Source: an uncultured virus (IMG/VR IMGVR_UViG_3300042350_005891) (taxonomy: Duplodnaviria > Heunggongvirae > Uroviricota > Caudoviricetes). From it: a stretch of DNA of 64,000 nucleotides. The notes beneath the pieces were generated by a model. It was given only the letters and a program-made list of their open reading frames with translations. It did no database searches and was not told the DNA's origin. The stretch's first letter is position 1, and each line of letters opens with the position of its first letter. Where the stretch lies: the IMG/VR virus record IMGVR_UViG_3300042350_005891; one strand, written 5' to 3'. Shown here in pieces: positions 36,164 to 59,035 of this stretch. The position numbers and the translations under genes were made by a program.

Positions 36164-39100
36164 ATGGCCGATCCAATTAATCCTCAGGAAGATCAGGCTG
36201 TAGAAACGCAGGCCCAAACCAATCCTGAAATCGAGGGTCTTTTCCAGGAACAAGCTGCCCTTACTCCCCAGCAGGAGATAGACTCACTTTTTGCCGGCCC
36301 TGAGTCCGGTTTGGCCCAGGCCCAAAACCTTATCCAGCTTCGCGACGACCCGCAGGCCCTGGACTTTTTCCTCGGCACCGCCGAGCGTTTCCGCAAGGGC
36401 CAGCTTCCTTTTAACCAGCAGTCCTGGGAAGACGCACAGGCCAATGTCCAGCGTTACCAGGAAGAGACTTTGCCCAAGCTCAATGAAGCCCAGCAAAAAG
36501 GCAACTGGTCTGACATGGCAAAGATCGGGATTGGAGGGGTCGGGAAGGTTCTGGGCGCATACATTCAATCCGGATTCGGGGCGACCAATGAGGAGATGGA
36601 GAAAGCCCAGCAAAGCCTCGCCGCACGTAACTTTATCGGAACCATCTCGGACCCCAAGGAAGCCGCCCGAGCGCTTGAGCTTGCGGCCATTTACTCCGAC
36701 GAACTGGACGCCAAAAAGTCGATAGTTCCGGAAGGACAGAAACCGGCGATGGCGTTCGGCACCGGGCCGATGACCGCCAAGCTCGGGATGAATCTTGCCC
36801 AAGCCGAGGAATATCTCCGCGATCTGGAAAGCGACAGGACCAAGAAACTGGGAACCGCCGGTCTTCGCAACTTCGCCATGCAGTCCGGCGACGCATTCCT
36901 TCCGTTCGTCAGCATCGGTGACGTTATCATTGATAACGAAAACGATCCCGACCAGGTCGCCCGTCGCGCCGCCCTTACCAACAAGATCAACGATGTGATC
37001 CAAAAGGATTACGGAGTCTCGACCCTTGCCGGAGCCGCTGCCGGATCGGTGGGTTCCTTTATCGGGGTCGGTGCCGCGGCCACCAAACTTCTCGGCCAGG
37101 CCGGGAAACTTGCCGACGCCACGATCAAAACCCCCACGCTTCTTTCCCGCGGTGCCACTTACGCCACGATCGGTGCCTCGCAATCCTTCGAGGGTGATCC
37201 CCGCAATCTTTCTTTCGGCCAGCGTCTGGCCTCGATCTTTAGCGAATCCGCGATTCTTGGACTGGCTGAAGGCTTGGGCAACAAGCTGGAAAACTCGGTC
37301 GACAATGCCATGTCCAATTACCTTGTGGCCTCGGCCCTTGGCAAGGAGCTTCCCGAGTTTGCTCCGGTAATCAGCAGTGCTTCGAAGATTCTTGGGACAA
37401 CCCTGGGTGAAACTGCCTCGGAAGAAATTGAAGCGGTCCTTCGCGGACAAGATCCGGTGGAACCATTCCTGCAAAACCTTGGCGTGTCGTTCGGTGTCGG
37501 TTTGGGTATGGCCGTTCCTGGAATGACCGGCGCGGCTCTGGCCGCACGCCGGGCAAAGATTTACCAGAAGGCGAACAATGACTTCACCAAGATCATGGAA
37601 AGCGTGGTCAACAATATCAAGGCTGACCCGAATCTTTCCGAGGCCGACAAACAGAATGAGTACAATCAGCTTCGCCAAAAGTTTAATACTCCCCAGGCGC
37701 TGAACATTATTGACGCAACCATCGTAGGCGCTTCGCTCGACGCAACCACGTCACCTGAATCCAAGAAGGTGGTGGACGAAACGATCGAGGCGAACAAGCA
37801 AGACGCGGTCGAATCTCTCCTGGCTAAAAAAGTTGCCGAAGCCAAGGGAGTTCCCCCGGCTCCGGCCCAGCCCGAAGTTTTAGGCACGATCACCGGTCCC
37901 GTGGATGAAGCGCAGGCGGAGGAAGCTTTCGCGGAAGTCGTCGGGATGTTCGAACAGGGTGCCAATAATATTCCGATCGAAAATACTCCAGGCAACGAAG
38001 CCAAGATCAAATGGCTTGAGGGTCAGGGTAGGATTGTCGGGGAGTTCAGCCCGGACAACAAAACCTACATAATTAAAAATGTAAAGGACATCGGGGGCAA
38101 CTGGCTCCGTGGTGAACCTCCGAGTGAGTACGATGCCGATTTCAAGGATCAGCTTATCCAAATGGCCGAAGATGCCGGACTCGAGCAGCAACTCATTGAT
38201 CAGATGTACGATGAATTGTTTGGAGAAGCCGCGGATGAAGAAGCCGTTAAACGTATATCTGAATTTTATTTGGGGCCCGATGCATATGATCTTGCAAGGG
38301 AAGCGGATCTTAATGTTCGCCAGGAAAACGTTGATCAGGAAGCCCAGGTTGAACTTAGAATCAAAAGCTACAATCAACGCATCGACGACCTGCAAAAGAA
38401 GCTAAAAGAAGCCCTGCCTGAAGACAGGGCTGAGCTGGAGGGAGTTATTGCCCAGCTTGTTCAGGCGCGTGATCTGGAGCTTGGAGAGAGGGCACAACGC
38501 GGGGAACTATCCGTCGCGGCCTTGGTGAAAAAATATGAGGGGGAAGTTGACAAGGAGTTAGACGAAGAAGAGAAGGAACGCAAACGTTCCGGTCGCCTTG
38601 CTCCGGAGCTTGAACAAAGACCAGAAGTTATATTGCCGATCAATAATCCGGATTCCGACAGGTATGCCAAGGCCAATAAGTACAATGAGCCAGACCCACG
38701 CGAGAATGATATTAACGCCCTGGATCGGGTTTTCAATCTAAAACGTCCGGAGACAGTTAAATTACTACAGAGTCTTGGGGCCTTGGACGAAAACCTACGC
38801 CCTTTGATGACTCCCGCAGAAGTCGCTCAGGCTTTCATTGACAGAAAACAAAGCTACCTGCGTGGAAAAGCTTTGTCCGGTTACCAAGGTTTCAACATTG
38901 CCGACGAAGTTTCCGATGCGTTCATCAAGGAGTTTCAATACGCCATCCGAACCGGAGTCCCTGTTATTTCCCTAAGCACTCTTTTCAACAGTCGGCTCCG
39001 CGATTTCATCCGCCTTGCCCGTCCGCGGATGCGTGCCGGTGTTGGGCTTGGCATGGCGGTTGACTTTGACAAACCGGGTATCCGGGTTGGACGCGTCAAC

Positions 39101-42100
39101 AAACAACAGTTTGCGGATGAAAATGACCTCAACGATGATGTGTCCGACGCAGTTGATACTGCCATGGACGAGATCGACGAGGCGTTGGTTGATGTCCCAG
39201 GAGCCGCAAATGTTTCCCCGGCCCAGCGCCAGGAAGCCATGGGGATCATCGCCCAGAACATCCTTCCGACTTTCCGTGAGTCCCTGGCCTCCGAAGCCGA
39301 GAAGCTTGCCCTCGACGCGATCGTTGCCGGCAAGCAGGATCTGGCCGTTAAAGCCAAGGCTATCGGACAATCGGTTGAGGGAATCAACGCCCTTATCGAG
39401 CCGGTAAAATTAAAACTTCAGGAGGCCATTAAAAATCGTTTCCGGGAATTGGCCGCTGAGAATAATCTCCCATCGCGGGAGGTGACCCTGCCTGCCGGAG
39501 TACGGGTCGCCGGGGCTGTGCCCTCCGCTCAAAGACAAATAGCGATCAACAAGTACCGCGACATGATTGCGTCCTCGATCATCAGCGAGGATACTACAGA
39601 CCCGGACCGGGTAGCGGCGGATGTGCTTTACAACAACCTCCTTTCGGAAAACAGCAAGGAAGCACTCGACGCTTTTGAACAGTATCTAACCAATTTCGAA
39701 AACATTCGTTTGTCCCCCGAAGCAATTGACGCTGTTGTCTCCGACATTAACCAGCTTCTCAAGGGGTTCAAAGATAACGGGTCGCTTACCGAGGAGCAGG
39801 TCAACGAGTTTGTCACTAAACTAAATGCATTGTCCGTGCCTTATTACGAGGCTATTGGAGAAGAATTTGATCCGGCCAGCCCGGAATATAAAAACCTAAC
39901 CAAGAATTTCAGGGCGAATATCCTGAAGATCAGCGATGACATCATCGCCAAGAAAGACGAAAACGAAGCCAAGGAACAAGGAGTATCCTATGAACCCAAA
40001 ACCAAACCTACGACTGCCGCCGATAAACGTGAGGCAGCGCGCCGCCAGTTGGAAGCCAAAAAAGCAGGCAAGCCTACCGCCCCAGAAAGAGTTTCTGGAA
40101 AAACCGTTCCCCCTCCAGGGGAAAAAGTGGCAGGAGGCCCTGGACGTCCAGCCACCGTTCCCGGGAGACCTGGAGCTAAGCGGGATCTTGGCACCCCAAT
40201 CCCAAAAAGCTTCGTAGAATCCCCGGCACAGAGGGGCCGGATTTACCCTCTTACCGCGGTAAACACCCTTGGGAAAACTTTCCTGGACCGTATGACGGAG
40301 GAGCAAAAGCAGGACGCCGAGGCCGCGATCACGGCTATGGAGGCTTCCAAGTACAATTCATTCTATCTGGCCAACGGGCCCGGCACGGGTAAGACCTTGG
40401 TTCTATTGGCTACCGCGAAATATTATTTGGAACGTGGATTCAAGGTCGTTTATTTGACGTCATCCGATGCGGTCACACCAAACTGGGATGCCGGAACCAT
40501 AGGCGGATCGCTTCAAAAAGAAGCCGATTTGATGGGTGTTCCGCTTGCTGTTCGCGGGGCCAAGGGTCCGAATAAAAAAGGTTTACCGATTGAACATGTG
40601 CCTGGAAAAGTTCTTGTGTCTGTTTATAGTTCCGGCGAGAAAGCCCCGTATCTTGAAAAAATTTCAGCCTTAACCGATTCCAAAACCATCGTAATTTTTG
40701 ACGAGCACCACAACGGGCGAAATCTTTACAAGAAAATCCAGGAAGGTGGCGAAACTTCCTGGGCAAAGTTGATGGAAGATATCTCTCTGAAAGCCGGGCG
40801 TGTGTTGATGGCTTCAGGAACTCCGTTCGAATCTCCCGATCAGTTGTTCTCCCTTGCCCGGCTTGGAATCTTTGATAATGAAAGTCCAGACGCTTTGTTC
40901 CTACGTTTGGGCTTCCAGAAAGAGTACCTAAAAAACGACAAGAAAGCTAAGAAAAGTTACTGGAGACTCGCTGACAATGTCACTTACGAGGAAATGCAGA
41001 CACGGCTGGAAGAGTATGTCGAGGGTTTGGTGGCAAACGGCATCCTTCGTTCCCGGTCCCTAAAGTTAGATGGGGTAAATGTACAGTTCCAGGATGTTCC
41101 CCTGGACGATAACATTGTAAAAAGGCTTGAGGAGATCAAGAATAGATACGGCGGGGATCAAGTAAATAATCCAGCTTCCTTGCGGGCAATGGTCGCCGCA
41201 CAGAAAAGGGCATTGGAAGAGTACAAGGTCGAGGCAGCGGCTCGTCGTGCCATTGATGCTATTCGCCGTGGGAAGAAACCGGTTCTTTATGTTGGGTTTG
41301 TTTCCGAAGAAGACTCCCAAAATAACAAGGTTGACCCGACGGCAAGATCGCTTGAGGAGGCCATCAAGAAACTCGCTCCGGATTTGCGTATCGCAAGGAT
41401 GTACACCGGCGCCGGCCAGACCAAAGAGGAAGCGATGGTCGCTTTTAACGAAGGCGATGCCGATGTCCTGATTGCCACCAAGGAAAAGGGCGGAACTGGG
41501 ATCGAGTTGGATGATAAGTTTGGTGGCCCGAAGGATAGCCGAGAAATGATTATCCTTTCTCCGCCCATCTCCGCGATCCAGGCCGTGCAGTTGATTTATC
41601 GGGTATGGAGAACCGACAGCGCCAGCCGTCCGAATATTGTTTTCCTTGAGTCCAAAGCCGAAGTCGACCAGTACAATCTGGACCGGATGCGGGCCAAGCT
41701 CCGCTTGCTCGAAGCAACGGTAGGCTCCGGTCTTGGCCGGTTGCAGGCAGGCCAGGAACTCAAAAAAGAAATCGACCCTCGTACCTCTGTGACCAAGGTT
41801 GTCGAGCCGACCGCGGAAGAAATTGCGGCAACCGAGGCAGACCTTAAGGCGGTTCTCGGTGATGCCTATCAAAACAATCTGATCACCCTGAAAGACGCCA
41901 AAGGCGTAACCAGGACCTACCCGGTCGGCATCTCCAAGAATGACGACCATCTGGCCGCGGCCCATGCGGGTAGCACGGATGACACGGACAAAATTATTTT
42001 CAATCCGGTTCAGTTGGCCAAAGCCAAAGCAATCCTTGGGGCCGAGGCTTTCAACCGATATCTGGACCGGGTTCTTGTCGAGGAAATGATTCACGTTGAG

Positions 42101-45100
42101 ACCTTTCGTTATTACCGGGAACAGGGACTTGACCCGACCGAGGAAATCTCTGCCATCGGTTTTGCCCTGACTAAGGACACTAGACTGGCGATTGCCAGGA
42201 CTTACTTCAGCAATCAAGGCGCCGACATTTCGAGTAAAGAAGTACAGTCGATGATAACAGCTCTTGCGAACGATAATTACTTGGTCGCCATGGAAGGCAT
42301 CCGCCTTCTCGCCCAGTTGGACCTGACCCAGGGTGTGACCGAACAAGTAACCTCGGTTGACCCGGCAAGCGTGAAGCGCGCAAATGCGAGGTTAAAAGAC
42401 CTTGTTCAAGCAGAATCGAAAGACGCGCTTACCCGTTTGGGTCTGTGGCTCAGTGACATGGTTAACGCGATTAAAGGTAAGCTTGGTCTTTTGCCGTCGG
42501 CCAAAAGCAGGCTGGCCCTCCGCGATTCCCTTGAAGATGCAATCGGAAGATTGAAGTCGACCGGAAAAGATTTCTCACGCCTGGCCGATGCCGCACCCGC
42601 CGCAGCCGCTTTGCCAGAAGGGTTAACCCCCACATCTCCGCGTCCGGCCAACAAGCTCGACGGGTATGATCTTCGCATCTACCGGATGATTGAAAACGTG
42701 CTCGAGGGCCGGACGCCCGACGTGCTCGGCGTCAAGGTTTCCGACGACATGTTCAAGACGGTCAGCACCGGAGATTGGCTGGAAGCCCTCGACATCAGTT
42801 TCCGCCGCGGGTTGATCACGCGCCAGGAAAGAAGTCTTTTCCGCCAAGCCGCCAAATTCTACACGGACGGAGGACGGGTGAGCCTTCCGGCCCTCGCCAA
42901 CAAAGCCCTTGAGATGGCCGAGGACATGGAGATTGCCGGGGATTCTCTCCCGGCGGCGGCTTTCATCCCGATCTCCACCGGCCCCACGGTCACCCAGCAA
43001 TCCATTTCCGAATATGGAAAGTACCGTGTTCAAATCAGCCCGTATCTTGCGGAACCCACGGTTGCCAAATCCGCGGCCCAAGCCGTTGCCAATTACGTCA
43101 GCCGCTTCTTGGATGAGAAAGGCTCGATGGCTTTCCGTGGGCGTGTTTATACCCAGGACGAAAAACAATATCTCATAGCCGCAATCCGTGACGAGGGCTA
43201 CGACAAGTTCGCCCGCAGGCTGACGCCTGAAGTTCCCAAGCCGACCGCCACCGTTCCGGTCGGTGCAGTGACCGTGTCGGTTGGCATGGAGCCTGTGACC
43301 ATTCCGGTCGAAGCTCCGGCACCCGCTCCGGTCCCAGCCGCGCAACCCGAAACCCGTGTAAGCAAGGCCGCTTCCAACATCATCACCCAGTTCGTTGACG
43401 TTCTTCCCGAAGGACCGGTCAAGGACAAGCTCCTCGACAACTGGTTCTACCAGTCGACCCCGCGGGAGGAACAGTTTGCCATGGCCGTGGATTACATCCA
43501 GAAAAACGGGGGCCACGATGTTGTCGTCGATCACTTCCTGAGCGGCAACATCAAGACCACCCTGCCCTTGCAGGCGGCGATCGGATTTGAACTTGCCAGA
43601 TACCTCGGTACCAAGGCCAAGACCGATCTGCTCGCCCAGGAACAACTGGCCGAAGTGATGATCAGACTCGCCCGCAAATACGGCACGGAGCCCGGACAAG
43701 CCGTCGATCTTTGGAACGCGCTTAGCGATTTGGCCGAGAACCCCGAGGTGATGAAGGTGGTCATCGGTCGGCAGATTGACGCGGCTGTCAGCGGAAGACT
43801 TGCTGGATACGCCGAGGAGGAAGCCGAGGTCAAGTCCGGGCTCAACGACGCCAACCGCCGTGCGGCTGACAAGATGGTTCTCAGCCCCAAGAACCAGAAG
43901 GCAATCGCGGCCCTAGCCGAGCTTGTTGAGCTTAACAAAAAACAGGTTCCGGTGTCGCAGTTTGAGGCTGCTCTCAACGCGTTCCTTAACAGCGATGAAG
44001 CCAAGAATGATGCCGTTGAGTTCCTCGGTGAGGACCTGGCTGCGACTTCCCCAATCGAGGGGAGTGATGCCGACGAGATCCGTCTCAACCCCAAGCAGAC
44101 CAAGGCTCTGGCCCGTCTGATCCTGAACATCATCCAAAAGGCCGACAATCCCGTGGCCATGGCTCAAAGCCCGGACAAAATCCTTCAAGCTCTGTACCTG
44201 GTTCCAGGCATCAAGGATTCGAAGAATCCGGAGAACGTCCGCAGAAAGCTGGAATTGTATCTGGACGGAGCGTTGGACTTCGCCGTCAAACAGTTTGGGG
44301 CGGAAGCCATTCGCGCCGCCCGGCTCCGCGAGGGGCGCGAGCTTCCCGAGAGCGAGACCCCTGGAGAGATCGAGCCGGTTCAGACCCGCGGTGAAGCACG
44401 TCGCCAGCGTAAAGACACAATTACAAAACTCAAGAAGGAGTCCCCCATCCCTGTATTTATCGAAGGCGAAGGAACCGTGGCCGATGAAGCCGTTGCCTTG
44501 GCCGACGGTCTTGTGGACTATCTGATTCTTGCGGCTGAGCAGGAACAAAAAGAGCCCAAGATCAAGACCATCGCAGAGAGGTTTGCCGCCGACTTAAAGA
44601 GAATGGTTCGCAACCGGATCAAGGAAAAGGGCGGCTTGCAACCGGCCTTTGAAAAACCCGCACCTCCGACTGCCGCCGAAACCATGCAGGAGCGTATTGC
44701 GAAAAACAGTATTATCCAGGAAGCCATTGAGATGGCCAAGGACGGCCTTAAGAACACTTATTCCGAAGAAGAGTTGATCGGCCTTGAGCCGCTTTTTGAC
44801 GACGTCTTCGGTCGCATCTTTACGGTTTCCGAAATCAAGCGTGCCCTTCGCACCCTGTCCTCGATCGGCGGAAAGGACGTCAATGTCCGTAGCCTGATCC
44901 GGGAAAGCAAGGGAGACCTGATGACCTTCGAGGACAAGCTGGGCGAACTCCTGTTGCAGAACACCAATCTTGACCTGGCCGAAAGAAAGCAGGTGCTGGA
45001 TTATCTGCGGGATGGCATGGCCGAATTGATTTCCCAGGAACGCAAAGCCGAGCTTGAGCGGATCAAGAACCGGTTCGAACGTTCCAAGGAGCGCAAGACC

Positions 45101-47509
45101 CGCAAGATGCGGTCGGCGCTGGACCGCCTCATTGAAGCGGTCAACCTCGGTGTGTTGTCCGACAACGAGGTATTCTCGCAGATGCGCGGTCAACTCGGCT
45201 TGCCGGAACTCAAGGCCGAGGAACGCCAGCGGCTCAACAAACTCATCGAGGATCTTCCGCTTTACCCCAAGGGCATGATCCGCAACAAGAAGATTTCGGA
45301 GATGTACCAGTACGTCAAGCTGATCTCCCCGCAAGCTTGGGGCGATCTGATCGTCAATTACCAAACCTCAAACCTTTTGGCCGGTGCCGGTACGATCGGT
45401 ATCAATGCCTGGTCAGCCTACTTCTCCAACCTTCTCAACGGGGCAATCTTGGGGATGTTCGGTTCGACTTACAACCTCCTTGGAAACAAGACCAAGGGGA
45501 AAGCTTACACCCAAGCCGCGATCGATCTCAACGCCGCACTCTGGGCCGGAAAGAAACCGGCATGGAAAGCCGCGCAGAATGTGTTCTTCAAGGGAGATTA
45601 CTCCAGCGTGCAGGACGCCCTGACGATGGAGCTTGGCGGAGTCAACATCTGGGAAGCCATCCTCAATCAGGCCGAGGCTTACCGTTCCGGCAAAGCCGGC
45701 GCGGTCAAACCCGAGTTGCCGGTCAAGGTTCTCGGCCAGGAGTACCGCATCCCGCTGGACTCCAAACTTGTCAGCAGTAAGTACGGGGCGTTGGCTCCCT
45801 TCATTTGGTTTGGCCGTGCGATGGCCGCTGGCGACGCCATCAATAAAATCACCTCCAAGAAGATGTACGAGATCGCGGAAGCGACCAACATTGCCGCGGC
45901 AAAATTCAAGGAGCAGGATAAAATCGAGGCCGAGGTAGCACGCCTTCTCAACAACTCTCCCGAAGCCAGACGCCGGGCCGAAGCCAAAGCCGCCGCCGAA
46001 GCGGAGGAGTTTGCCATGACCCCGGAACAGCAGGCCCTGCGCGTCGAGGAGATCATGGAGCAGGGCCGTCCCGACGAGGAAGATGTCAGACTTCTGGCCG
46101 AAAGGACACGGGAGTTTGCGGCCCGGGCCACCTTTACCAACAACTTCGAGGGATGGTTCGGTCTTCTGGCCGACGGTCTCACCTCGCTTTCCGCGAAGGC
46201 TTGGCCGCTTCGCCTCTTCATCAAGTTCCTTCGTACCGGCTCAAGCCTCGCCAACGAGGTTCTCAACTTCATGCCGGTCGTCTCGACCGTGCGGTTCTAT
46301 CGCGGCTCCGCGGCGATGCTCAAGGAATCCAAATACTACCGTCCGCCACCCACGCCCGGAACCGTCGAACACGATCTTCTCCTCGGCAAGATGACCATCG
46401 GTTATGTGATGACGGCCACTCTGCTTCTCGCCATGAAGGAAGCCTTGGACGGCGAGGACGATCCTTACTTCAACATCCACTTCAAAGGCCCGCTTGACCC
46501 GGCCCAGCGCGAGGCTTTCTTCGCCGCCGGCGGCAAGCTCCGCTCGATCCAGGTCGGGCGGTGGCGCGACGGCAAGCCCCAGTTCTTCAGCTTCGAAGGT
46601 TTCCCGGTCGGCATGTCCGCCCCATTGATCTTGTCCGCGGCCATCGTGGAAGCCATGCGCTACGAGAAGCGGTCGACCGCCGAGGCCGTTGTCATGTCCT
46701 CCGTCACCGGCGGTGCGCTGGCGATGTACGGCGTTCTGGACATGGCGGCGTTGTCGGGTCTGCGGCAGATCATGTCGCTGACCTCACCCGGAGTCGGGCA
46801 GAAAGATCCCAAGAGTATCGTGAGCAACCTGACCAAGACGATGGGCAACGTCGTCGGCGGATTGATCCCGGGATACGCCACGCTCCGTGACATCGAACAG
46901 GTTTGGAACGGGTTCACCGGAGCGCCGTCCGCCAGACCCTACGAACAGAACCTGGCGTCCACCTTCCTGCAAAGCGTTCCGTTCGCCTCCAAGATCGGTG
47001 ACCCGGATCTCAACTTCCTCGGAGGTAACGTCAAGACCCAGCTGGCAAACACGGCTCCGCTCATCCGGCGTCTCACCACCTTCGGCGTGGACTCACGGGA
47101 CTACGACATGGGCGACCGCAGTGACCAGGCAATCACCGACAAGCTGGTGTCCCTGTTTGCCTCCAACCGCACATCGCTGGATTGGGATGCCGGCCCGCTC
47201 AAGGATTTCGCCATGATGGAACTGATCGCCCAGGCCAAGCAGGACGGACAGGATCTTACGTCCGACGACTTCTTTGAGCTCCGCCGTGAGCTTACCCCGG
47301 AGGAGAAATACGAATGGCTCCAGAGGGCCGGCCCCGTGATCAGAGAGCAGCTGGGTACCATGATTCCCGACCTGGAGCGGCTCGGTCGCGCCGAGTTTAT
47401 CACCCTTGTCCGCCAGGTTGCCAACCCCATCAAGAGGCAGATCCTCCAGCAGATTCTTCTGGAAAAGAATCAGCAGGCTATCTTGTATCCGGAACGGACC
47501 GGATTATAA
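36164..47509 (+). CDS. Giant polyvalent internal virion protein (3781 aa) with Strawberry-notch-like SF2 helicase
   Basis: NGPGTGKT, FDEHH, SGTP, GGTGIELDD, QLIYRVWR; EEMIH zincin-like motif; sigma-like segment; position at the end of the tail module. Confidence 0.8.
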   Translation: MADPINPQEDQAVETQAQTNPEIEGLFQEQAALTPQQEIDSLFAGPESGLAQAQNLIQLRDDPQALDFFLGTAERFRKGQLPFNQQSWEDAQANVQRYQEETLPKLNEAQQKGNWSDMAKIGIGGVGKVLGAYIQSGFGATNEEMEKAQQSLAARNFIGTISDPKEAARALELAAIYSDELDAKKSIVPEGQKPAMAFGTGPMTAKLGMNLAQAEEYLRDLESDRTKKLGTAGLRNFAMQSGDAFLPFVSIGDVIIDNENDPDQVARRAALTNKINDVIQKDYGVSTLAGAAAGSVGSFIGVGAAATKLLGQAGKLADATIKTPTLLSRGATYATIGASQSFEGDPRNLSFGQRLASIFSESAILGLAEGLGNKLENSVDNAMSNYLVASALGKELPEFAPVISSASKILGTTLGETASEEIEAVLRGQDPVEPFLQNLGVSFGVGLGMAVPGMTGAALAARRAKIYQKANNDFTKIMESVVNNIKADPNLSEADKQNEYNQLRQKFNTPQALNIIDATIVGASLDATTSPESKKVVDETIEANKQDAVESLLAKKVAEAKGVPPAPAQPEVLGTITGPVDEAQAEEAFAEVVGMFEQGANNIPIENTPGNEAKIKWLEGQGRIVGEFSPDNKTYIIKNVKDIGGNWLRGEPPSEYDADFKDQLIQMAEDAGLEQQLIDQMYDELFGEAADEEAVKRISEFYLGPDAYDLAREADLNVRQENVDQEAQVELRIKSYNQRIDDLQKKLKEALPEDRAELEGVIAQLVQARDLELGERAQRGELSVAALVKKYEGEVDKELDEEEKERKRSGRLAPELEQRPEVILPINNPDSDRYAKANKYNEPDPRENDINALDRVFNLKRPETVKLLQSLGALDENLRPLMTPAEVAQAFIDRKQSYLRGKALSGYQGFNIADEVSDAFIKEFQYAIRTGVPVISLSTLFNSRLRDFIRLARPRMRAGVGLGMAVDFDKPGIRVGRVNKQQFADENDLNDDVSDAVDTAMDEIDEALVDVPGAANVSPAQRQEAMGIIAQNILPTFRESLASEAEKLALDAIVAGKQDLAVKAKAIGQSVEGINALIEPVKLKLQEAIKNRFRELAAENNLPSREVTLPAGVRVAGAVPSAQRQIAINKYRDMIASSIISEDTTDPDRVAADVLYNNLLSENSKEALDAFEQYLTNFENIRLSPEAIDAVVSDINQLLKGFKDNGSLTEEQVNEFVTKLNALSVPYYEAIGEEFDPASPEYKNLTKNFRANILKISDDIIAKKDENEAKEQGVSYEPKTKPTTAADKREAARRQLEAKKAGKPTAPERVSGKTVPPPGEKVAGGPGRPATVPGRPGAKRDLGTPIPKSFVESPAQRGRIYPLTAVNTLGKTFLDRMTEEQKQDAEAAITAMEASKYNSFYLANGPGTGKTLVLLATAKYYLERGFKVVYLTSSDAVTPNWDAGTIGGSLQKEADLMGVPLAVRGAKGPNKKGLPIEHVPGKVLVSVYSSGEKAPYLEKISALTDSKTIVIFDEHHNGRNLYKKIQEGGETSWAKLMEDISLKAGRVLMASGTPFESPDQLFSLARLGIFDNESPDALFLRLGFQKEYLKNDKKAKKSYWRLADNVTYEEMQTRLEEYVEGLVANGILRSRSLKLDGVNVQFQDVPLDDNIVKRLEEIKNRYGGDQVNNPASLRAMVAAQKRALEEYKVEAAARRAIDAIRRGKKPVLYVGFVSEEDSQNNKVDPTARSLEEAIKKLAPDLRIARMYTGAGQTKEEAMVAFNEGDADVLIATKEKGGTGIELDDKFGGPKDSREMIILSPPISAIQAVQLIYRVWRTDSASRPNIVFLESKAEVDQYNLDRMRAKLRLLEATVGSGLGRLQAGQELKKEIDPRTSVTKVVEPTAEEIAATEADLKAVLGDAYQNNLITLKDAKGVTRTYPVGISKNDDHLAAAHAGSTDDTDKIIFNPVQLAKAKAILGAEAFNRYLDRVLVEEMIHVETFRYYREQGLDPTEEISAIGFALTKDTRLAIARTYFSNQGADISSKEVQSMITALANDNYLVAMEGIRLLAQLDLTQGVTEQVTSVDPASVKRANARLKDLVQAESKDALTRLGLWLSDMVNAIKGKLGLLPSAKSRLALRDSLEDAIGRLKSTGKDFSRLADAAPAAAALPEGLTPTSPRPANKLDGYDLRIYRMIENVLEGRTPDVLGVKVSDDMFKTVSTGDWLEALDISFRRGLITRQERSLFRQAAKFYTDGGRVSLPALANKALEMAEDMEIAGDSLPAAAFIPISTGPTVTQQSISEYGKYRVQISPYLAEPTVAKSAAQAVANYVSRFLDEKGSMAFRGRVYTQDEKQYLIAAIRDEGYDKFARRLTPEVPKPTATVPVGAVTVSVGMEPVTIPVEAPAPAPVPAAQPETRVSKAASNIITQFVDVLPEGPVKDKLLDNWFYQSTPREEQFAMAVDYIQKNGGHDVVVDHFLSGNIKTTLPLQAAIGFELARYLGTKAKTDLLAQEQLAEVMIRLARKYGTEPGQAVDLWNALSDLAENPEVMKVVIGRQIDAAVSGRLAGYAEEEAEVKSGLNDANRRAADKMVLSPKNQKAIAALAELVELNKKQVPVSQFEAALNAFLNSDEAKNDAVEFLGEDLAATSPIEGSDADEIRLNPKQTKALARLILNIIQKADNPVAMAQSPDKILQALYLVPGIKDSKNPENVRRKLELYLDGALDFAVKQFGAEAIRAARLREGRELPESETPGEIEPVQTRGEARRQRKDTITKLKKESPIPVFIEGEGTVADEAVALADGLVDYLILAAEQEQKEPKIKTIAERFAADLKRMVRNRIKEKGGLQPAFEKPAPPTAAETMQERIAKNSIIQEAIEMAKDGLKNTYSEEELIGLEPLFDDVFGRIFTVSEIKRALRTLSSIGGKDVNVRSLIRESKGDLMTFEDKLGELLLQNTNLDLAERKQVLDYLRDGMAELISQERKAELERIKNRFERSKERKTRKMRSALDRLIEAVNLGVLSDNEVFSQMRGQLGLPELKAEERQRLNKLIEDLPLYPKGMIRNKKISEMYQYVKLISPQAWGDLIVNYQTSNLLAGAGTIGINAWSAYFSNLLNGAILGMFGSTYNLLGNKTKGKAYTQAAIDLNAALWAGKKPAWKAAQNVFFKGDYSSVQDALTMELGGVNIWEAILNQAEAYRSGKAGAVKPELPVKVLGQEYRIPLDSKLVSSKYGALAPFIWFGRAMAAGDAINKITSKKMYEIAEATNIAAAKFKEQDKIEAEVARLLNNSPEARRRAEAKAAAEAEEFAMTPEQQALRVEEIMEQGRPDEEDVRLLAERTREFAARATFTNNFEGWFGLLADGLTSLSAKAWPLRLFIKFLRTGSSLANEVLNFMPVVSTVRFYRGSAAMLKESKYYRPPPTPGTVEHDLLLGKMTIGYVMTATLLLAMKEALDGEDDPYFNIHFKGPLDPAQREAFFAAGGKLRSIQVGRWRDGKPQFFSFEGFPVGMSAPLILSAAIVEAMRYEKRSTAEAVVMSSVTGGALAMYGVLDMAALSGLRQIMSLTSPGVGQKDPKSIVSNLTKTMGNVVGGLIPGYATLRDIEQVWNGFTGAPSARPYEQNLASTFLQSVPFASKIGDPDLNFLGGNVKTQLANTAPLIRRLTTFGVDSRDYDMGDRSDQAITDKLVSLFASNRTSLDWDAGPLKDFAMMELIAQAKQDGQDLTSDDFFELRRELTPEEKYEWLQRAGPVIREQLGTMIPDLERLGRAEFITLVRQVANPIKRQILQQILLEKNQQAILYPERTGL

Positions 47510-53299: not shown

Positions 53300-53504
53300 G
53301 GACACCTGCCAGACGAAGTGCCTCGTCAGCCCCGGCCTTGAACACGTTCTGAAGAACGTCGTCCAAGAATCCGGGAGCCAGCTCGAGTTTAAGGTCAGTG
53401 ACCTGTTCGTTGGCGGCGTCCACCTCTGCGTTGAATGAGATCTTGTGGATGCTGTCACCAGCACCCCAGAGGATCTCGCCTTGTACCTTTTGCGTTTTGT
53501 TCAT
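53292..53504 (-). CDS. Hypothetical protein (MNKTQKV...)
   Basis: GAGG Shine-Dalgarno; ATGA overlap. Confidence 0.6.
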   Translation of the reverse strand: MNKTQKVQGEILWGAGDSIHKISFNAEVDAANEQVTDLKLELAPGFLDDVLQNVFKAGADEALRLAGVHG

Positions 53505-54139
53505 TCTAATACCTCGCTCCAATACCGACTTGTTTTGAATCCCTGCAAGTTGTCCCACCAGATGAATCTGGCCGCGGGTGCAGGGATGCCGTGTTTCCGT
53601 GACTCCGTCCGCCACTCGTCCTCAAGGGCCAAGTATTCGGAACGCGTCACGTGCCTGTCTTTCCCATGGATGGACTTCAGAACCCGGCGGTCCAGACATA
53701 CCACGTCGGACTCACCAAGGTACTTCATCTCCATGTAGAAACTGGACTTGGCTATCGCCAACCCCGGAACCGTGTCAGCAATCCTGTCACGATACTGCGT
53801 AAACGGTTCGTTGGCGTAGCGAACGAACAGATGTGGCTTGGCCTGAAACATCTGATCGAACTTCCAAATGTTGATCGCCTTCGTTTTCCATAGCCCGGTC
53901 TTGGTTTGAAATAACTCAAACTGTAGTTTACCAAGATCAGACTTCCACTTGCCCCGATCCTCGATGGCGCGGAACGCCTTGACGTTTTGCTTCCAACCAA
54001 AGTTCGCAGCCAGGATGGAAAACACCCAGAATCGCCACTCGTCGTCGCGACTCTTAGGTTTGATTTTTTCCCAGTAGTTGACATAACGCGATACCACGCG
54101 GGGTTTGAGCCCGGCGAATACCTCAGCTACCCCACTCAT
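53501..54139 (-). CDS. HhH DNA glycosylase-like protein (OGG-like)
   Basis: FSILAAN...VPGLAIAKSSF...CLDRRVL...YLALE...FIWW. Confidence 0.7.
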   Translation of the reverse strand: MSGVAEVFAGLKPRVVSRYVNYWEKIKPKSRDDEWRFWVFSILAANFGWKQNVKAFRAIEDRGKWKSDLGKLQFELFQTKTGLWKTKAINIWKFDQMFQAKPHLFVRYANEPFTQYRDRIADTVPGLAIAKSSFYMEMKYLGESDVVCLDRRVLKSIHGKDRHVTRSEYLALEDEWRTESRKHGIPAPAARFIWWDNLQGFKTSRYWSEVLE

Positions 54140-54353
54140 AGAACAGGGGTTTCGTCTCTCCTTCGGGAGACGGATGGAGACGCGACTCTCCACCAAACTT
54201 CTCGAGGTCCGCCGTCAGAAGGGCCATGCCCTCCGTGTCGGATACGTATCCCCGGATACTGTCGTTTTTAATCCCATCTTCAAACGACACCCAAGTGTCG
54301 TCCGCGGATAGGAAGGTTTTTGTTTTGGTGTCTACAATACAATAACAACTCAT
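54123..54353 (-). CDS. Hypothetical protein
   Basis: AGGAG Shine-Dalgarno; ATGA overlap. Confidence 0.55.
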   Translation of the reverse strand: MSCYCIVDTKTKTFLSADDTWVSFEDGIKNDSIRGYVSDTEGMALLTADLEKFGGESRLHPSPEGETKPLFYEWGS

Positions 54354-54568
54354 AGGGTTACTCCTGTCTTATGTTCCTTTACCATTTGGCTGATCGCGAT
54401 TACGACCTGGCCTTCAATTGCGCTGATGAATTCCCCGCTCACCCGAGAGGGGACACACTTAAGAGGGGCAAGCCCCATCTCAAGTCTTGTCTTGTTGCGC
54501 TCCTTGAAGTTGGCCGATGCCATGTCCAAGGCGGCGCGTTTAACCGCTGCTTTGTTAATCAAACTCAT
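54350..54568 (-). CDS. Putative phage histone-fold protein (72 aa)
   Basis: LINKAAVKRAA (alpha1)...RVSGEF (L1), long alpha2, GVTL (L2); AAGGAG Shine-Dalgarno. Confidence 0.6.
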   Translation of the reverse strand: MSLINKAAVKRAALDMASANFKERNKTRLEMGLAPLKCVPSRVSGEFISAIEGQVVIAISQMVKEHKTGVTL

Positions 54569-54700
54569 GCTGTGTCTCCTTGAAACCAGATCACTCTGGA
54601 CAATATATTTTCGTTGTAGGGTCTGGCCCACACGGGCCATAACTTGATCCGAACCCCGTCCATTGTTCCGATATAGGCGGACAGGGTAAGGGCAAGCACC

Positions 54701-55366
54701 CTAATGCTTCTTGTAATCAATGGCGAATACACTTTTGTCCCAACACTTTCTACAGTCACCGCACTTGTTTCTTTGCTTCGAAGAAGGGCAGTTGAAGTTG
54801 CCGATCATGCTGGCCCCCGACACCGTCAACCCAAGACGCTGGGCGATACCCACAGGGGCTGGGCCGTCCATCATCAGGGCCGACAGGCGGATGCACAGGT
54901 TGTCGGGAACCTCACCACCACCCTCAATGTAGCTGGACACAAACGCGTACTCGCGGGTGGGTAGCCAGAAGGAAATGTGGGGCAACATCTTTGCCACGTC
55001 CACAATGTTCTTCAGATGCCACACACCTTGAAGATCGCCGGAATCATGCCAGCGGAAGTGGTGGGTTTTTGTCTTCCCGATTAGGTAAGTTATTGCACTT
55101 ACCCAAAGCGGATGGGTCAGGGACTTGAAGCGTTTCTCCATCGCCTCCACGACGTTGGGGAACACGTAGCGTCCCTTCAGCGCGTAGCAAAACGCGCAGA
55201 TACTACCCGCCACCTTCCGCATCTTCTGCCCGATAAGGCAGCGTTTGGCTGGCGTCGAGTATGCGTACCCCGGCATCTTGGAAGGTTTGGAGAGCGTACC
55301 GACTATGCTCTCCGCTTCCTTCTTGTTCTTGAACGGCTGGTCAGCGGGAGTAGATTTTGGATTCAT
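54701..55366 (-). CDS. Gp88-like protein (Cys-rich, radical-SAM-related fold)
   Basis: LSKPSKMPG, CAFCYALKG, FRWHDSGD, FWLPTRE, CGDCRKCW. Confidence 0.8.
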   Translation of the reverse strand: MNPKSTPADQPFKNKKEAESIVGTLSKPSKMPGYAYSTPAKRCLIGQKMRKVAGSICAFCYALKGRYVFPNVVEAMEKRFKSLTHPLWVSAITYLIGKTKTHHFRWHDSGDLQGVWHLKNIVDVAKMLPHISFWLPTREYAFVSSYIEGGGEVPDNLCIRLSALMMDGPAPVGIAQRLGLTVSGASMIGNFNCPSSKQRNKCGDCRKCWDKSVFAIDYKKH

Positions 55367-55604
55367 GTGCCTTCTGGTCCCAGGGTTTCTTGCCCTCGAA
55401 CTTCTCCTTCCGCACCATAATCCCAGCGTTGTCGTAGCCCGTGCACTCGCACCACTCGGGGATAAGAGTCGATGCATCGCGGCCTCGAAGAACCACGCGC
55501 TCGATACGTTCCACCTCTTCCTCGTGCCATCCGTATCCGTAGGGATACTTGGTTCCGGCGATGTCCCGGGCTTGCTTTCCTTTGTATTCAACTTCAGTAA
55601 TCAT
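55341..55604 (-). CDS. Hypothetical protein
   Basis: GGAGG Shine-Dalgarno; ATGA overlap. Confidence 0.6.
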   Translation of the reverse strand: MITEVEYKGKQARDIAGTKYPYGYGWHEEEVERIERVVLRGRDASTLIPEWCECTGYDNAGIMVRKEKFEGKKPWDQKAHESKIYSR

Positions 55605-55759: not shown

Positions 55760-55794
55760 AAAATACGGGGGCGTGGGAGTTGCCCACGCCCCCG
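55760..55794 (-). terminator. Rho-independent terminator after rIIB
   Basis: CGGGGGCGTGGG-loop-CCCACGCCCCCG followed by TATTTT. Confidence 0.75.
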
Positions 55795-55801
55795 CCTCCA
55801 A

Positions 55802-56656
55802 TTAGTTGTTTCCGGGCAGGGCGTTCAAGAGCCGGTTAGCCGCCTCACGAATGGCGGTCACCAAGCTGTTGTCACCCGTTGATTCGCTCGCCTCGACGTC
55901 ATCCTCTTCATAGATGTCGTCTTCGACCGAGTCGTACGTTTCTGCGTACGCTTTGGGCAGCGGGCCAGTGTAGTGGGCCACGACCTCATAGCGGGCAGTG
56001 CGAAGCTTCTGGCATTCGCAGTCGTTGGGAACCGAGACGACATCGGCAGGGTTGATCTTGACGATCATTACCTTGCGGTCGCTTCCTCCGAACGTGGTTG
56101 CGTATTCCAGCGAGCCGGCGTGGAAACCATACGAACAACCGTTGTCGGGATTGTCGTCCACGTCGCGCCGTTGGATGCTCAGCACCGAGCCGACCGTGTT
56201 GCTGAACTTGCCGGTGTGGTGGTCGGTGTAGTCGGGTTGAACCGACTTGTAGGCAAGGAAGTGACCGTCCTCGGTGATGGGCAGATGCTCGTGCTCGAGG
56301 AACTTGTACAACTGCGTCCGGCTGTTACGGCTCGGATTGTTGTAAAGATTCTCGAGGAACCTGGTCAGCGGGGCCACCGGAAGATTGTTGGACATGAAGT
56401 CCAGAATCCTCTTGGAGATGACCTCATCAACCGGCTCGCCACGATGGTGGACAGCACCGTCCCGCACCTCGACGTTGTCGCCAAGGTAAGCGGACATGGC
56501 CTGTTGGACATCCATCAGCTTCTCGATGTCAGCTTCGTTGTCCCCGCGGGCGATCGCCTCGATCACCAGTCTCGCGTTGGCGTGGTCACGGCGCAAGGTG
56601 TGAGCCTTGCCGCCGATGACTGCCGTTATACTCTCGTCAGTTACTATGTATTTCAT
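55802..56656 (-). CDS. rIIB: RIIB-like protein
   Basis: FLENLYNNPS...LPITEDGHFLAYK...CSYGFH...VKINPADVVSVP. Confidence 0.9.
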   Translation of the reverse strand: MKYIVTDESITAVIGGKAHTLRRDHANARLVIEAIARGDNEADIEKLMDVQQAMSAYLGDNVEVRDGAVHHRGEPVDEVISKRILDFMSNNLPVAPLTRFLENLYNNPSRNSRTQLYKFLEHEHLPITEDGHFLAYKSVQPDYTDHHTGKFSNTVGSVLSIQRRDVDDNPDNGCSYGFHAGSLEYATTFGGSDRKVMIVKINPADVVSVPNDCECQKLRTARYEVVAHYTGPLPKAYAETYDSVEDDIYEEDDVEASESTGDNSLVTAIREAANRLLNALPGNN

Positions 56657-56680: not shown

Positions 56681-59035
56681 TTATCGGCCATCACGCGCGG
56701 CATCAACGAGCCGCACATATTCGACCGAAGCTTGTGTTGGGATGGAGAACGCATGGCTCCGCATCATATCGGGAGACTCTGGGTTTCTCACGAAGAGCGG
56801 ATAGCGATCGACCAGACCCTTGGATGCTTTCTTCAAATCAAACGATGGCTCGGGAAGAAGATTAAAGAGTGCTTTGTACTCCTTGCTCTCTTCTCCACGG
56901 CCAATCTGCCAGACTCCTGTGGGGCGTCTGAGCCACACGGGAAGTTTCCGTTGCTCTTGTTCGTTTCCACCAAGCATCCGATAAAGGTGTTCCATGTAGA
57001 CACGGAACGGACTTTTCGGGTCAAGCCCGCTGATGAGGCTTGGCTTGTTCTTTGAACTCTCAAACCACCTGAACAAGTCCTCCGTCTCAAAGAAGTTACC
57101 GGAGTTCTTCCAACCATTACTACCCCAATGGGATGAGCTGTAGGAGAAGAACACCCGAGCCGCCTTGCGGTCGGCAATCAGTTGTGCCTTGTCTGGGTTG
57201 GCAACGAGAAACTCTTTGACATACTTGTCGAGAGCCTCGTGGAGGCAGATGAGGTTATCGTTAGCTTTGGCTTTCTCGTCGGCAACCTTGACGCCGTAAA
57301 GCGCCTTGACCGGAGAGATAGCCTTCAGATACCCCAATGCATCGTGCAGGGTTTCGTAGTTGCTGTAGAACGCGTCTCTTCCAAGGGTCGCAGACCACTC
57401 AAACTTGTTGAGCCGGACAAAGACAGTCTCGCCATCCGGCGCCTGTCCAAGATTCCAATGGTCGCTGAGCTTGTCTTGATCCGCATAGTCCGAGCGAAGG
57501 ACAAACAGATTCCCGCGGGAATGCTTTTTGTCCTTCACGGCGATCACGGGGTCACCGTTCTCATCAACGAATGTCTTCGCTGGCGGCTTGGGCAACGCCT
57601 CGATGGAGCGGAACGGCACATGCTTGAACCAAGGCACATTGGCCTCGAGCCAGGCTTTGCCACCGTTCTTGCAGGATATGACAAAGACGGTTGCGTCATT
57701 GCTGTAATCCGTGGTGTTCGTCATCCAATAACGGAGGCGGGCTTCACCCGATCCGGTCTTGGTGTCGTTGAGGAACACCTCCATATTTTTGGAGATATGG
57801 ATTCGGTGGTCGTCACGATCAACGCTTACCCTTGACTTGCCCCAGCTGCGCTTGCCCATCCGAAGCAGGGTGATGCCATGCTCCTCAAGAATGGTCTTGG
57901 GTGTCTTGGTGATCTCGCCCTTGGCGTTCTTCTCAGTCTCCGCAAGCGGGAGCTCGAAGTCCCCGCTGAGTGGAATACCTTTCCACGTCAGCTTGGGCTT
58001 GATCTTCTTGACGACGGCGTCACGGAAGTTGCTTGAGCCATACTCACCGTAACGGCGGAACTCGCGGATAACCTGATACGCCGCGATGATGTCGGGCGCA
58101 CCCTGCACAGCCTTGATAAGCTCGTCTCCGATCGTGTTGACGATCGGGGTCAGATGCTTGATCAGACTCTGGATGGTCTTCTGCGAGTATTGCAGGTCCT
58201 CACGGGAAGGTGCGATCTGCACATCCCCGAGCTCGACCCGCACGTAGACGCCAGCGTTGATCAATTCCTTGATCGAGTTGGGTCCGGCGAAGTCGGCTTT
58301 CAGCGGATACAAAACCAGCCCCATCTGGAGCCAGCTATTGTTATCGCCACGGAAAGACCAGTTGCTTCCCTTGACCGAGCCTTCGCTGTAGTCACGCTTG
58401 GCCAGCATCTCCTGTTCTTCCGCAGTCGCCGACGCCAGCTTGGGCTGGACGTCAAAGACCTTGTAGACACGGATGGCCGTCGAGCGAAACCGCTCAACGT
58501 CAGTCGGGCGGACGGCGATGGCAATCTCAACCCCGCTTGGTTCCTTGGTCTTGGTCTCGCTGAGCATCGTGGCTCTGCCCACTTCGCTCTCGTCGATGTA
58601 GCAGTTCCAGATGCGCTTGGTTCCATCGTGGATGTCGGTCACGGTGCAGGAGTCGGTGTACGAGCCATAGGACTTGCAACCGATGCCAAGGCAACCCGTG
58701 AACTTATTGCTCGTCCGCTTGCTTGACCCGCCGTAGGAGCAGAACAAGTCCTTGAACGACTCAACGCCAAGACCCGGACCGAAGTCACGGAGCTTGAAGG
58801 TGGGAGCCAAGGACGTGGGAAGCGTCACCTCGAACGGCTTCTTCTCGTTGCCGTTGAGCATGTGCGCCTCGCACGCATTTGTGCCGTACTCACGGACCAC
58901 CGCACGGATGGGATCGGAGTAGGCTTTGCGGAGGATGCTGGCGATGTGACCGAGGTTGGCCGTGTCGATCTTGTAGTCGACCGACTCGCCGCCACCCTCG
59001 ATGACCGCCGAGTTTCTTGCAGCTGTAATGATCAT
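56681..59035 (-). CDS. rIIA: RIIA-like protein (GHKL/HSP90-like ATPase N-terminus)
   Basis: YSDPIRAVVREYGTNA, DFGPGL, GCLGIGCKS, PSREDLQY; upstream of rIIB. Confidence 0.9.
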   Translation of the reverse strand: MIITAARNSAVIEGGGESVDYKIDTANLGHIASILRKAYSDPIRAVVREYGTNACEAHMLNGNEKKPFEVTLPTSLAPTFKLRDFGPGLGVESFKDLFCSYGGSSKRTSNKFTGCLGIGCKSYGSYTDSCTVTDIHDGTKRIWNCYIDESEVGRATMLSETKTKEPSGVEIAIAVRPTDVERFRSTAIRVYKVFDVQPKLASATAEEQEMLAKRDYSEGSVKGSNWSFRGDNNSWLQMGLVLYPLKADFAGPNSIKELINAGVYVRVELGDVQIAPSREDLQYSQKTIQSLIKHLTPIVNTIGDELIKAVQGAPDIIAAYQVIREFRRYGEYGSSNFRDAVVKKIKPKLTWKGIPLSGDFELPLAETEKNAKGEITKTPKTILEEHGITLLRMGKRSWGKSRVSVDRDDHRIHISKNMEVFLNDTKTGSGEARLRYWMTNTTDYSNDATVFVISCKNGGKAWLEANVPWFKHVPFRSIEALPKPPAKTFVDENGDPVIAVKDKKHSRGNLFVLRSDYADQDKLSDHWNLGQAPDGETVFVRLNKFEWSATLGRDAFYSNYETLHDALGYLKAISPVKALYGVKVADEKAKANDNLICLHEALDKYVKEFLVANPDKAQLIADRKAARVFFSYSSSHWGSNGWKNSGNFFETEDLFRWFESSKNKPSLISGLDPKSPFRVYMEHLYRMLGGNEQEQRKLPVWLRRPTGVWQIGRGEESKEYKALFNLLPEPSFDLKKASKGLVDRYPLFVRNPESPDMMRSHAFSIPTQASVEYVRLVDAARDGR

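Follow-up and report, generated by a model that had tools for sequence, protein, structure and literature searches.

HLP72, a well-conserved small protein of uncultured lake phages with a possible nucleic-acid-binding role

This study concerns a small protein encoded in a 64,000-nucleotide stretch of DNA from an uncultured tailed virus of the Caudoviricetes (IMG/VR record IMGVR_UViG_3300042350_005891), the whole of which is called the window here. The protein, for which we use the working name HLP72, is the 72-amino-acid product of the minus-strand open reading frame (ORF) at 54350..54568, and a first-pass annotation had put it forward as a candidate phage-encoded histone. The HLP72 family belongs to no known family, and few genes are better conserved in the abundant group of uncultured lake phages that carries it. 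As for its function, HLP72 is possibly an oligomeric, non-enzymatic nucleic-acid-binding protein acting through a basic patch at a helix end and the adjoining loop, together with its C-terminal tail; this is the reading that we favour, and tentatively. Its membership in the histone fold is not established by the sequence comparisons and structural models described below.

Conservation and predicted architecture of HLP72

Translation of the minus-strand ORF yielded exactly the peptide quoted in the first-pass annotation. When 5.8 billion proteins were searched by a word index, 99 candidates came up, among which 98 were relatives of HLP72; 79 of these are exactly 72 residues long, and the others mostly reflect genes called from an internal methionine or from a spurious upstream start. 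A profile search extended the number of relatives to 119, all of one family and nearly all of 72 residues. Because an exhaustive phmmer search of 1.84 billion representatives clustered at 50% identity gave only five matches, the family is an isolated and tight one. A search for longer or fused relatives (127–2000 residues) found none. An alternative 96-residue reading from an upstream ATG (54640) was rejected in view of the prevailing length of 72 residues among the relatives and because the N-terminal extensions of the longer calls are mutually unrelated; one PHROG of unknown function (E 0.12) matched this longer reading only.

The 72-residue form had no match in PHROGs, NCBIfam or Pfam (the last at E up to 10) and no usable match in the ESM Atlas, and a tblastn search of 50,697 records of cultured phages gave none at E up to 10. 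All database entries for the relatives are named 'hypothetical protein', and we found no published paper or database entry describing the family. The names of six of the 24 viral contigs that carry HLP72 were sought in five supplement files, possibly truncated, of a survey of viral histones (PMC13681535), and none occurs in those files.

The 24 IMG/VR contigs are 17–82 kb long, and the DNA of the window is present in lake-water metagenomes. That the gene belongs to a phage, as had been proposed, is borne out both by these contigs and by the content of the window, which encodes a large terminase, a family-A DNA polymerase, a helicase, an exonuclease, virion proteins, homologues of rIIA and rIIB, and a giant protein of 3781 residues. 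The sole match in a cellular genome is an 18-kb contig (L025) in a Bathyarchaeia metagenome-assembled genome (MAG), which carries the phage gene at 71% identity; here phage DNA has probably ended up in an archaeal bin, and the contig gives no evidence for an archaeal host.

Among related viral contigs, the identity of HLP72 is 64–75% where that of rIIA is 25–40%, that of rIIB 47–76% and that of the GP88-family protein 22–76%; judged by these alignments, HLP72 is conserved better than its neighbouring genes. Across 26 HLP72 coding sequences, the codon differences comprise 8148 synonymous and 4443 non-synonymous ones. This synonymous excess, along with the number of relatives, shows that HLP72 is a real gene under purifying selection.

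The structure of HLP72 was predicted as a monomer by AlphaFold2 from a 30-sequence alignment. The model (mean pLDDT 82.9, pTM 0.56) consists of a helix at residues 3–31, a loop at 32–44, a second helix at 45–68 and a four-residue tail, with pLDDT values of 80–87 across the first helix and the loop. The gene and the parts of its product are as follows.

54350..54568, minus strand: HLP72 ORF, 72 codons and a stop (translation, relatives, 24 viral loci, codon differences)
54476..54562, minus strand: predicted helix 1, codons 3–31 (AlphaFold2, column conservation, hydropathy and hydrophobic moment)
54437..54475, minus strand: conserved 13-residue loop GLAPLKxxPSRVS, codons 32–44 (AlphaFold2), whose terminal R-V-S resembles histone loop L1
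54365..54436, minus strand: predicted amphipathic helix 2 of 24 residues, codons 45–68 (AlphaFold2; hydrophobic moment 0.99)
54353..54364, minus strand: invariant tail G-x-T-L, codons 69–72, with H66-K67 before it and no alpha3 after it

The first-pass annotation had described an alpha1, an insert, a long alpha2 and no alpha3. The missing alpha3 holds in the model, in which the chain ends four residues after helix 2; in place of a short alpha1 with an unstructured insert, however, the model has one continuous helix and the loop at 32–44. The motifs named in it are indeed nearly invariant among 49 members of the family: R42 occurs in 48 and V43 in 47, while S44, K67, G69, T71 and L72 occur in all of them. 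More generally, most of helix 1, the loop and the tail HKTGxTL are near-invariant, and helix 2 is conserved mainly at its hydrophobic positions. A basic helix-loop-helix protein was also considered on account of the N-x-x-E-R motif of that class, and this idea was dropped, as only 3–4 helical residues lie between the motif and the loop.

The chemistry of the protein is consistent with the reading that we favour. HLP72 is basic, with a median pI of 10.0 and a net charge of about +4.6 over the 49 members. Residues 3–21 of helix 1 are hydrophobic on all faces (the moment of residues 3–17 is 0.24), and its end, residues 22–31 (KERNKTRLEM), is polar, basic and almost invariant. Since a monomer of 72 residues cannot bury the hydrophobic surfaces of both helices, we infer that HLP72 self-associates, most simply as a dimer, through residues 3–21 and the broad face of hydrophobic residues on helix 2. 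Residues 18–31 as a whole, although strongly polar and basic (mean hydropathy −1.72), do not vary, a sign that they may form a functional surface, and the invariant patch rich in lysine and arginine suggests that a polyanion is bound there.

Based on these features, the protein would be a non-catalytic binder of nucleic acid, with DNA as its most likely ligand. One binding patch would be formed by the basic end of helix 1 and the loop (K22, R24, K26, R28, K37 and R42-V43-S44) and another by the C-terminal H-K-T-G-x-T-L. If two subunits paired in antiparallel fashion, each loop would be placed next to the partner's tail, by the same logic as in the L1-L2 DNA sites of histone dimers. Oligomerisation, nucleic-acid binding and this paired-loop geometry are all inferred, and HLP72 may behave as a very small DNA-binding protein of the architectural or regulatory kind.

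Sequence and structure comparisons with histones

Alpha3-truncated histones are defined by an alpha3 of 3–4 residues and by the motif R-x-T-x-x-x-x-D, known as the R-D clamp, according to the descriptions given in PMC11390915 and PMC12701072. Their quaternary hallmark is the antiparallel handshake dimer, in which L1 is placed next to L2, and their binding to DNA is independent of sequence. If HLP72 were a true and very divergent derivative of such a histone, alpha1 would span residues 3–17, a basic helical extension and a long L1 would occupy residues 18–44, alpha2 would be the helix at 45–68, L2 would be G-x-T-L and alpha3 would be wholly lost; the protein would form handshake dimers whose L1-L2 DNA sites are enlarged by the basic arm. 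We regard this descent as somewhat unlikely for the reasons given below.

An argument for it comes from a profile search of 177,635 PDB sequences, in which the sole match was chain A of 9F2C at E 0.2, improving to E 0.052 with a broader profile of 49 members that included divergent ones. This structure is HTkC, a face-to-face alpha3-truncated histone of Thermococcus kodakarensis (PMC11390915), and HLP72 residues 39–65 align with chain residues 19–45, namely with L1 and alpha2 in the correct register. Counted from the arginine of R-V-S, HLP72 and the alpha3-truncated histones share hydrophobic residues at offsets +1, +5, +6, +9, +13, +16, +17, +20 and +21 (nine of ten out to +21) and acidic residues at +4 and +7. 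The polar character of residues 18–31 is likewise what would be expected of an exposed insertion.

Further comparisons were made with histones obtained by searching 121 archaeal genomes with PF00808, which gave 26 nucleosomal histones and 11 distinct 58-residue alpha3-truncated ones. Twelve archaeal loci (L057–L066, L068 and L069, in the phylum of G001) encode 58-residue alpha3-truncated histones, which end in ...NGRKT(L/I)(I/M)KEDF and score only about 20 bits with PF00808, below its cut-off; they belong to a known class and served as the control.

Most of the sequence tests weigh against a histone origin and also against the histone likeness included in the reading that we favour. None of 49 HLP72 members matched a Pfam histone family. 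By hhalign, the family reached a probability of 1.0% (P 0.05) against the nucleosomal histones and 1.3–1.5% (P 0.035–0.04) against the alpha3-truncated ones; the latter alignments chose the same register as the HTkC match and were not significant, whereas the control comparison of alpha3-truncated with nucleosomal histones reached 94% (E 1e-7). Similarly, the control alpha3 profile recovered 9F2C at 7.5e-9, 9QT0 at 8.5e-8, and 8FVX and 8CMP at about 2.5e-6 (at most 2.6e-6), while the HLP72 profile attained only 0.05 on one structure.

A hidden Markov model (HMM) of HLP72 did rank histones high among 541 ORFs of histone loci. Most of this signal is taken away by the reversed-sequence control, since real histones scored a mean of 1.7 bits and reversed ones 1.1 bits (P 0.07), and a shuffled sequence reached up to 7.6 bits against 6.7 bits for the best real histone; the enrichment can thus be attributed to helical composition. 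In the 121 archaeal genomes, with the phage contig excluded, the HLP72 profile gave seven weak chance matches of 11.8–19.2 bits, some of them in the range 16.8–19.2 bits and none of them a histone gene, and the 16.8 bits of the HTkC match must be viewed in the light of such chance scores. The sequence similarity between HLP72 and histones is therefore local, statistically borderline and short of significance.

Structural comparison was calibrated with a genuine 58-residue alpha3-truncated histone folded by the identical route. The control model (pLDDT 68.4) has helices at residues 2–15 and 24–47 joined by a loop at 16–23, and in Foldseek 42 of its 45 rows were histone-fold entries with probabilities of up to 0.92. 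The same search of the PDB with HLP72 gave a best E of 2.5 and no histone in the 43 matches listed, and a search of BFVD gave a best E of 0.55 with nothing informative. Since Foldseek recognises the control, HLP72 fails a test that discriminates. The geometric comparison by VIA-align gave a result compatible with a histone fold but not diagnostic of it: histone-fold chains made up 7–9 of the best 50 matches of HLP72, covering alpha1-L1-alpha2 of those chains, at Z values 0.2–1.0 below the control, which itself had about 33 histone rows in its best 50 and a Z no higher than 5.0. At such a size this comparison cannot discriminate, and generic hairpins (RyR-domain units, AAA+ lid helices and TraM among them) reach scores as good as those of histones.

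The defining features are also divided. The alpha2 feature, a central helix of about 24–25 residues that follows an L1 with R-(V/L/I)-S/T, is present, as the second helix of HLP72 and that of the control are both 24 residues long and R42-V43-S44 stands ahead of the former, while the short alpha1 (about 11–14 residues) and L1 (about 6–8) are absent: HLP72 has an unbroken helix of 29 residues and a loop of 13 where the control has 14 and 8. The R-x-T-x-x-x-x-D motif and alpha3 are lacking in the HLP72 sequence, which ends in H-K-T-G-V-T-L without an aspartate. The proposal of histone-fold membership in the first-pass annotation is thus not upheld by family, profile, reversed-sequence or Foldseek results.

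A stronger form of the histone idea would make HLP72 a minimal 'two-helix histone', which has lost alpha3, carries a basic helical arm within alpha1/L1, forms handshake dimers and represents a new, sixth class of alpha3 histones confined to one lineage of lake phages. In such a protein, the enlarged L1-L2 sites would coat or bend DNA during infection. We consider this rather unlikely; if a histone-like reading were true, it would show how small a working histone fold can become, namely two helices and two loops, and a phage-specific class would join the recently described prokaryotic histones with about 120 natural variants at hand. If it is false, HLP72 keeps its place as one of the best-conserved genes of these lake phages without a known family. 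At present, HLP72 is an interesting but unproven orphan.

Gene neighbourhood, expression and possible partners

On the minus strand, the genes follow in the order rIIA, rIIB, a 66-residue ORF, GP88, a 32-codon ORF, HLP72, a 76-residue acidic ORF and an Ogg-like gene, so that the GP88-family and Ogg-HhH glycosylase-like genes flank the run of small genes containing HLP72. The features around HLP72 are listed below.

56681–59035, minus strand: rIIA homologue
55802–56656, minus strand: rIIB homologue
54701–55591, minus strand: cysteine-rich GP88-family protein (PF17338, E 1.2e-26)
54565..54663, minus strand: conserved 32-codon ORF beginning MDGVRIKLWPVWARP, whose TGA lies inside the ATGA start of HLP72 (alignment, translations, RNA fold)
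54576..54581, minus strand: Shine-Dalgarno AAGGAG, 7 nt before the HLP72 ATG and within the 32-codon ORF (SD-like motif in 10 of 26 loci)
54123..54353, minus strand: 76-residue acidic ORF downstream, whose ATG overlaps the HLP72 stop (ATGA); homologue in 21 of 24 loci
53501–54196, minus strand: Ogg-HhH glycosylase-like protein (PF22175, E 4.8e-9)

The position of HLP72 between rIIB and the Ogg-like gene is constant in the 24 viral contigs. Its DNA-related neighbours, namely the Ogg-HhH glycosylase-like, GP88 and rIIA/rIIB genes here and an HTH_31 gene upstream of it in other loci, suggest a DNA-related role in agreement with the reading that we favour. HLP72 is made from a translationally coupled run of small genes within this DNA-metabolism block.

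Several further observations concern the surroundings of HLP72. The order of GP88 and HLP72 is reversed in some related phages (L003, L007, L012 and others). In one phage subgroup, an HTH_31 DNA-binding protein is encoded directly upstream of HLP72 (L003, 2714–3004, plus strand) and is translationally coupled to it via an ATGA overlap. A strong terminator-like hairpin lies at 55765–55795 of the window (minus strand), immediately past rIIB and at the start of the 66-residue ORF, with a 13-bp stem of which 11 pairs are G-C and a T-rich tail after it. The giant 3781-residue ORF (window 36164–47509, plus strand) has as its sole recognisable part a ResIII/helicase-like domain at residues ~1378–1575. 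The idea of an N4-like phage was dropped, as this domain was all that could be recognised in the giant ORF and no virion RNA polymerase match was obtained.

The 32-codon ORF between GP88 and HLP72 encodes the peptide MDGVRIKLWPVWARPYNENILSRVIWFQGDTA and has no family match. Aligned with related loci, it varies at third codon positions and keeps a conserved peptide ...WPVWARPxNxNI...; it is free-standing in L014, L019 and L021, has a divergent copy in L001, and in L017 and L018 forms, by fusion, the C-terminal end of a GP88-like protein. High expression of HLP72 had been suggested from a strong Shine-Dalgarno sequence and a structured leader. The 146 nt upstream of HLP72 do fold better than shuffled sequences (z −2.76, with 2 of 200 shuffles equally good), but this stretch is coding, being occupied by the conserved 32-codon ORF. 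AAGGAG is likewise present here but not conserved, and because an SD-like motif occurs in only 10 of the 26 related loci, high expression is unsupported. In one metatranscriptome, consisting of contigs and hence uninformative on level or absence, a close relative's Ogg-like, GP88, rIIB and rIIA genes were partly covered and its HLP72 gene was not.

At both ends of HLP72, the adjoining frames overlap it. In 21 of 25 sources, the TGA within its start terminates an upstream frame at least 60 codons long, and the stop of HLP72 has the context CTATGA in 24 of 26 loci, by which the ATG of the next gene overlaps the stop. These overlaps place HLP72 within a translationally coupled run. They could also be taken as a sign that this basic protein binds RNA or couples translation within the small-gene cluster, as a Rop-like or ribosome-associated factor, and a weak second PDB match to the ribosomal protein eL28 (E 2.8) points the same way. 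This match is not significant, however, no RNA-binding family was matched, and overlapping genes are frequent in phages without dedicated factors; we therefore regard such a role as highly improbable.

Downstream, the 76-residue acidic ORF, for which no family match was found, also overlaps the start of the Ogg-like gene in the window. Its presence raises another explanation, in which HLP72 would be an unrelated helical hairpin forming a four-helix bundle that acts on a protein partner, either the acidic product of the overlapping gene or a host factor, and so serves the phage as a small regulator or inhibitor. The overlap of the HLP72 stop with the next start and the downstream acidic ORF in most loci agree with this, as do the geometric scores that generic hairpins share with histones and the conservation of both faces of helix 1, which would be expected with multiple protein contacts. 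The gene immediately 3' of HLP72, however, varies among phage subgroups, and the homologue of the 76-residue ORF lies at a variable distance of 0 to about 1.9 kb; moreover, nucleic-acid binding is the better fit to the strong positive charge and to the invariant K/R-rich patch. We consider a hairpin of this kind unlikely. Against the nucleic-acid-binding reading, basic charge by itself is no proof of nucleic-acid binding, and the acidic neighbour could be a protein partner instead.

Comparison with known systems

The helical hairpins of RyR domains, represented by a Bacteroides thetaiotaomicron protein (6UG5) and by rabbit RyR1 repeats (3RQR, 4ERT), were compared with HLP72. HLP72 does not match the profile of the RyR-domain family (Pfam PF02026).

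The first-pass annotation was correct in stating that prokaryotic and phage histones with a truncated alpha3 had already been described (Schwab et al. 2024, PMC11390915). HLP72 was compared with three of the truncated histones, namely HTkC (9F2C), HLp of Leptospira perolatii (9QT0) and HBb/Bd0055 of Bdellovibrio (8CMP, 8FVX). Unlike these, it has a helix 1 of 29 instead of about 14 residues and a loop of 13 instead of about 8, and it shows no alpha3 remnant, no R-D clamp motif and neither significant profile similarity nor a Foldseek match, both of which a genuine member attains. Like them, it is small, basic and single-domain; R-V/L-S opens an amphipathic helix of 24 residues with the same hydrophobic spacing and acidic +4/+7 positions, and the tail G-x-T-L stands where the histones have G-R-K-T-I/V.

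The 'phage histones' of Schwab et al. (2024, PMC11390915) combine an N-terminal alpha3 histone fold with a C-terminal tetramerisation helix. Compared with them by their description in that report only, HLP72 differs in ending after helix 2 without a C-terminal helical domain. As far as the same description extends, HLP72 resembles them in being encoded by tailed phages, in having no RxTxxxD motif and in its low identity to other histones.
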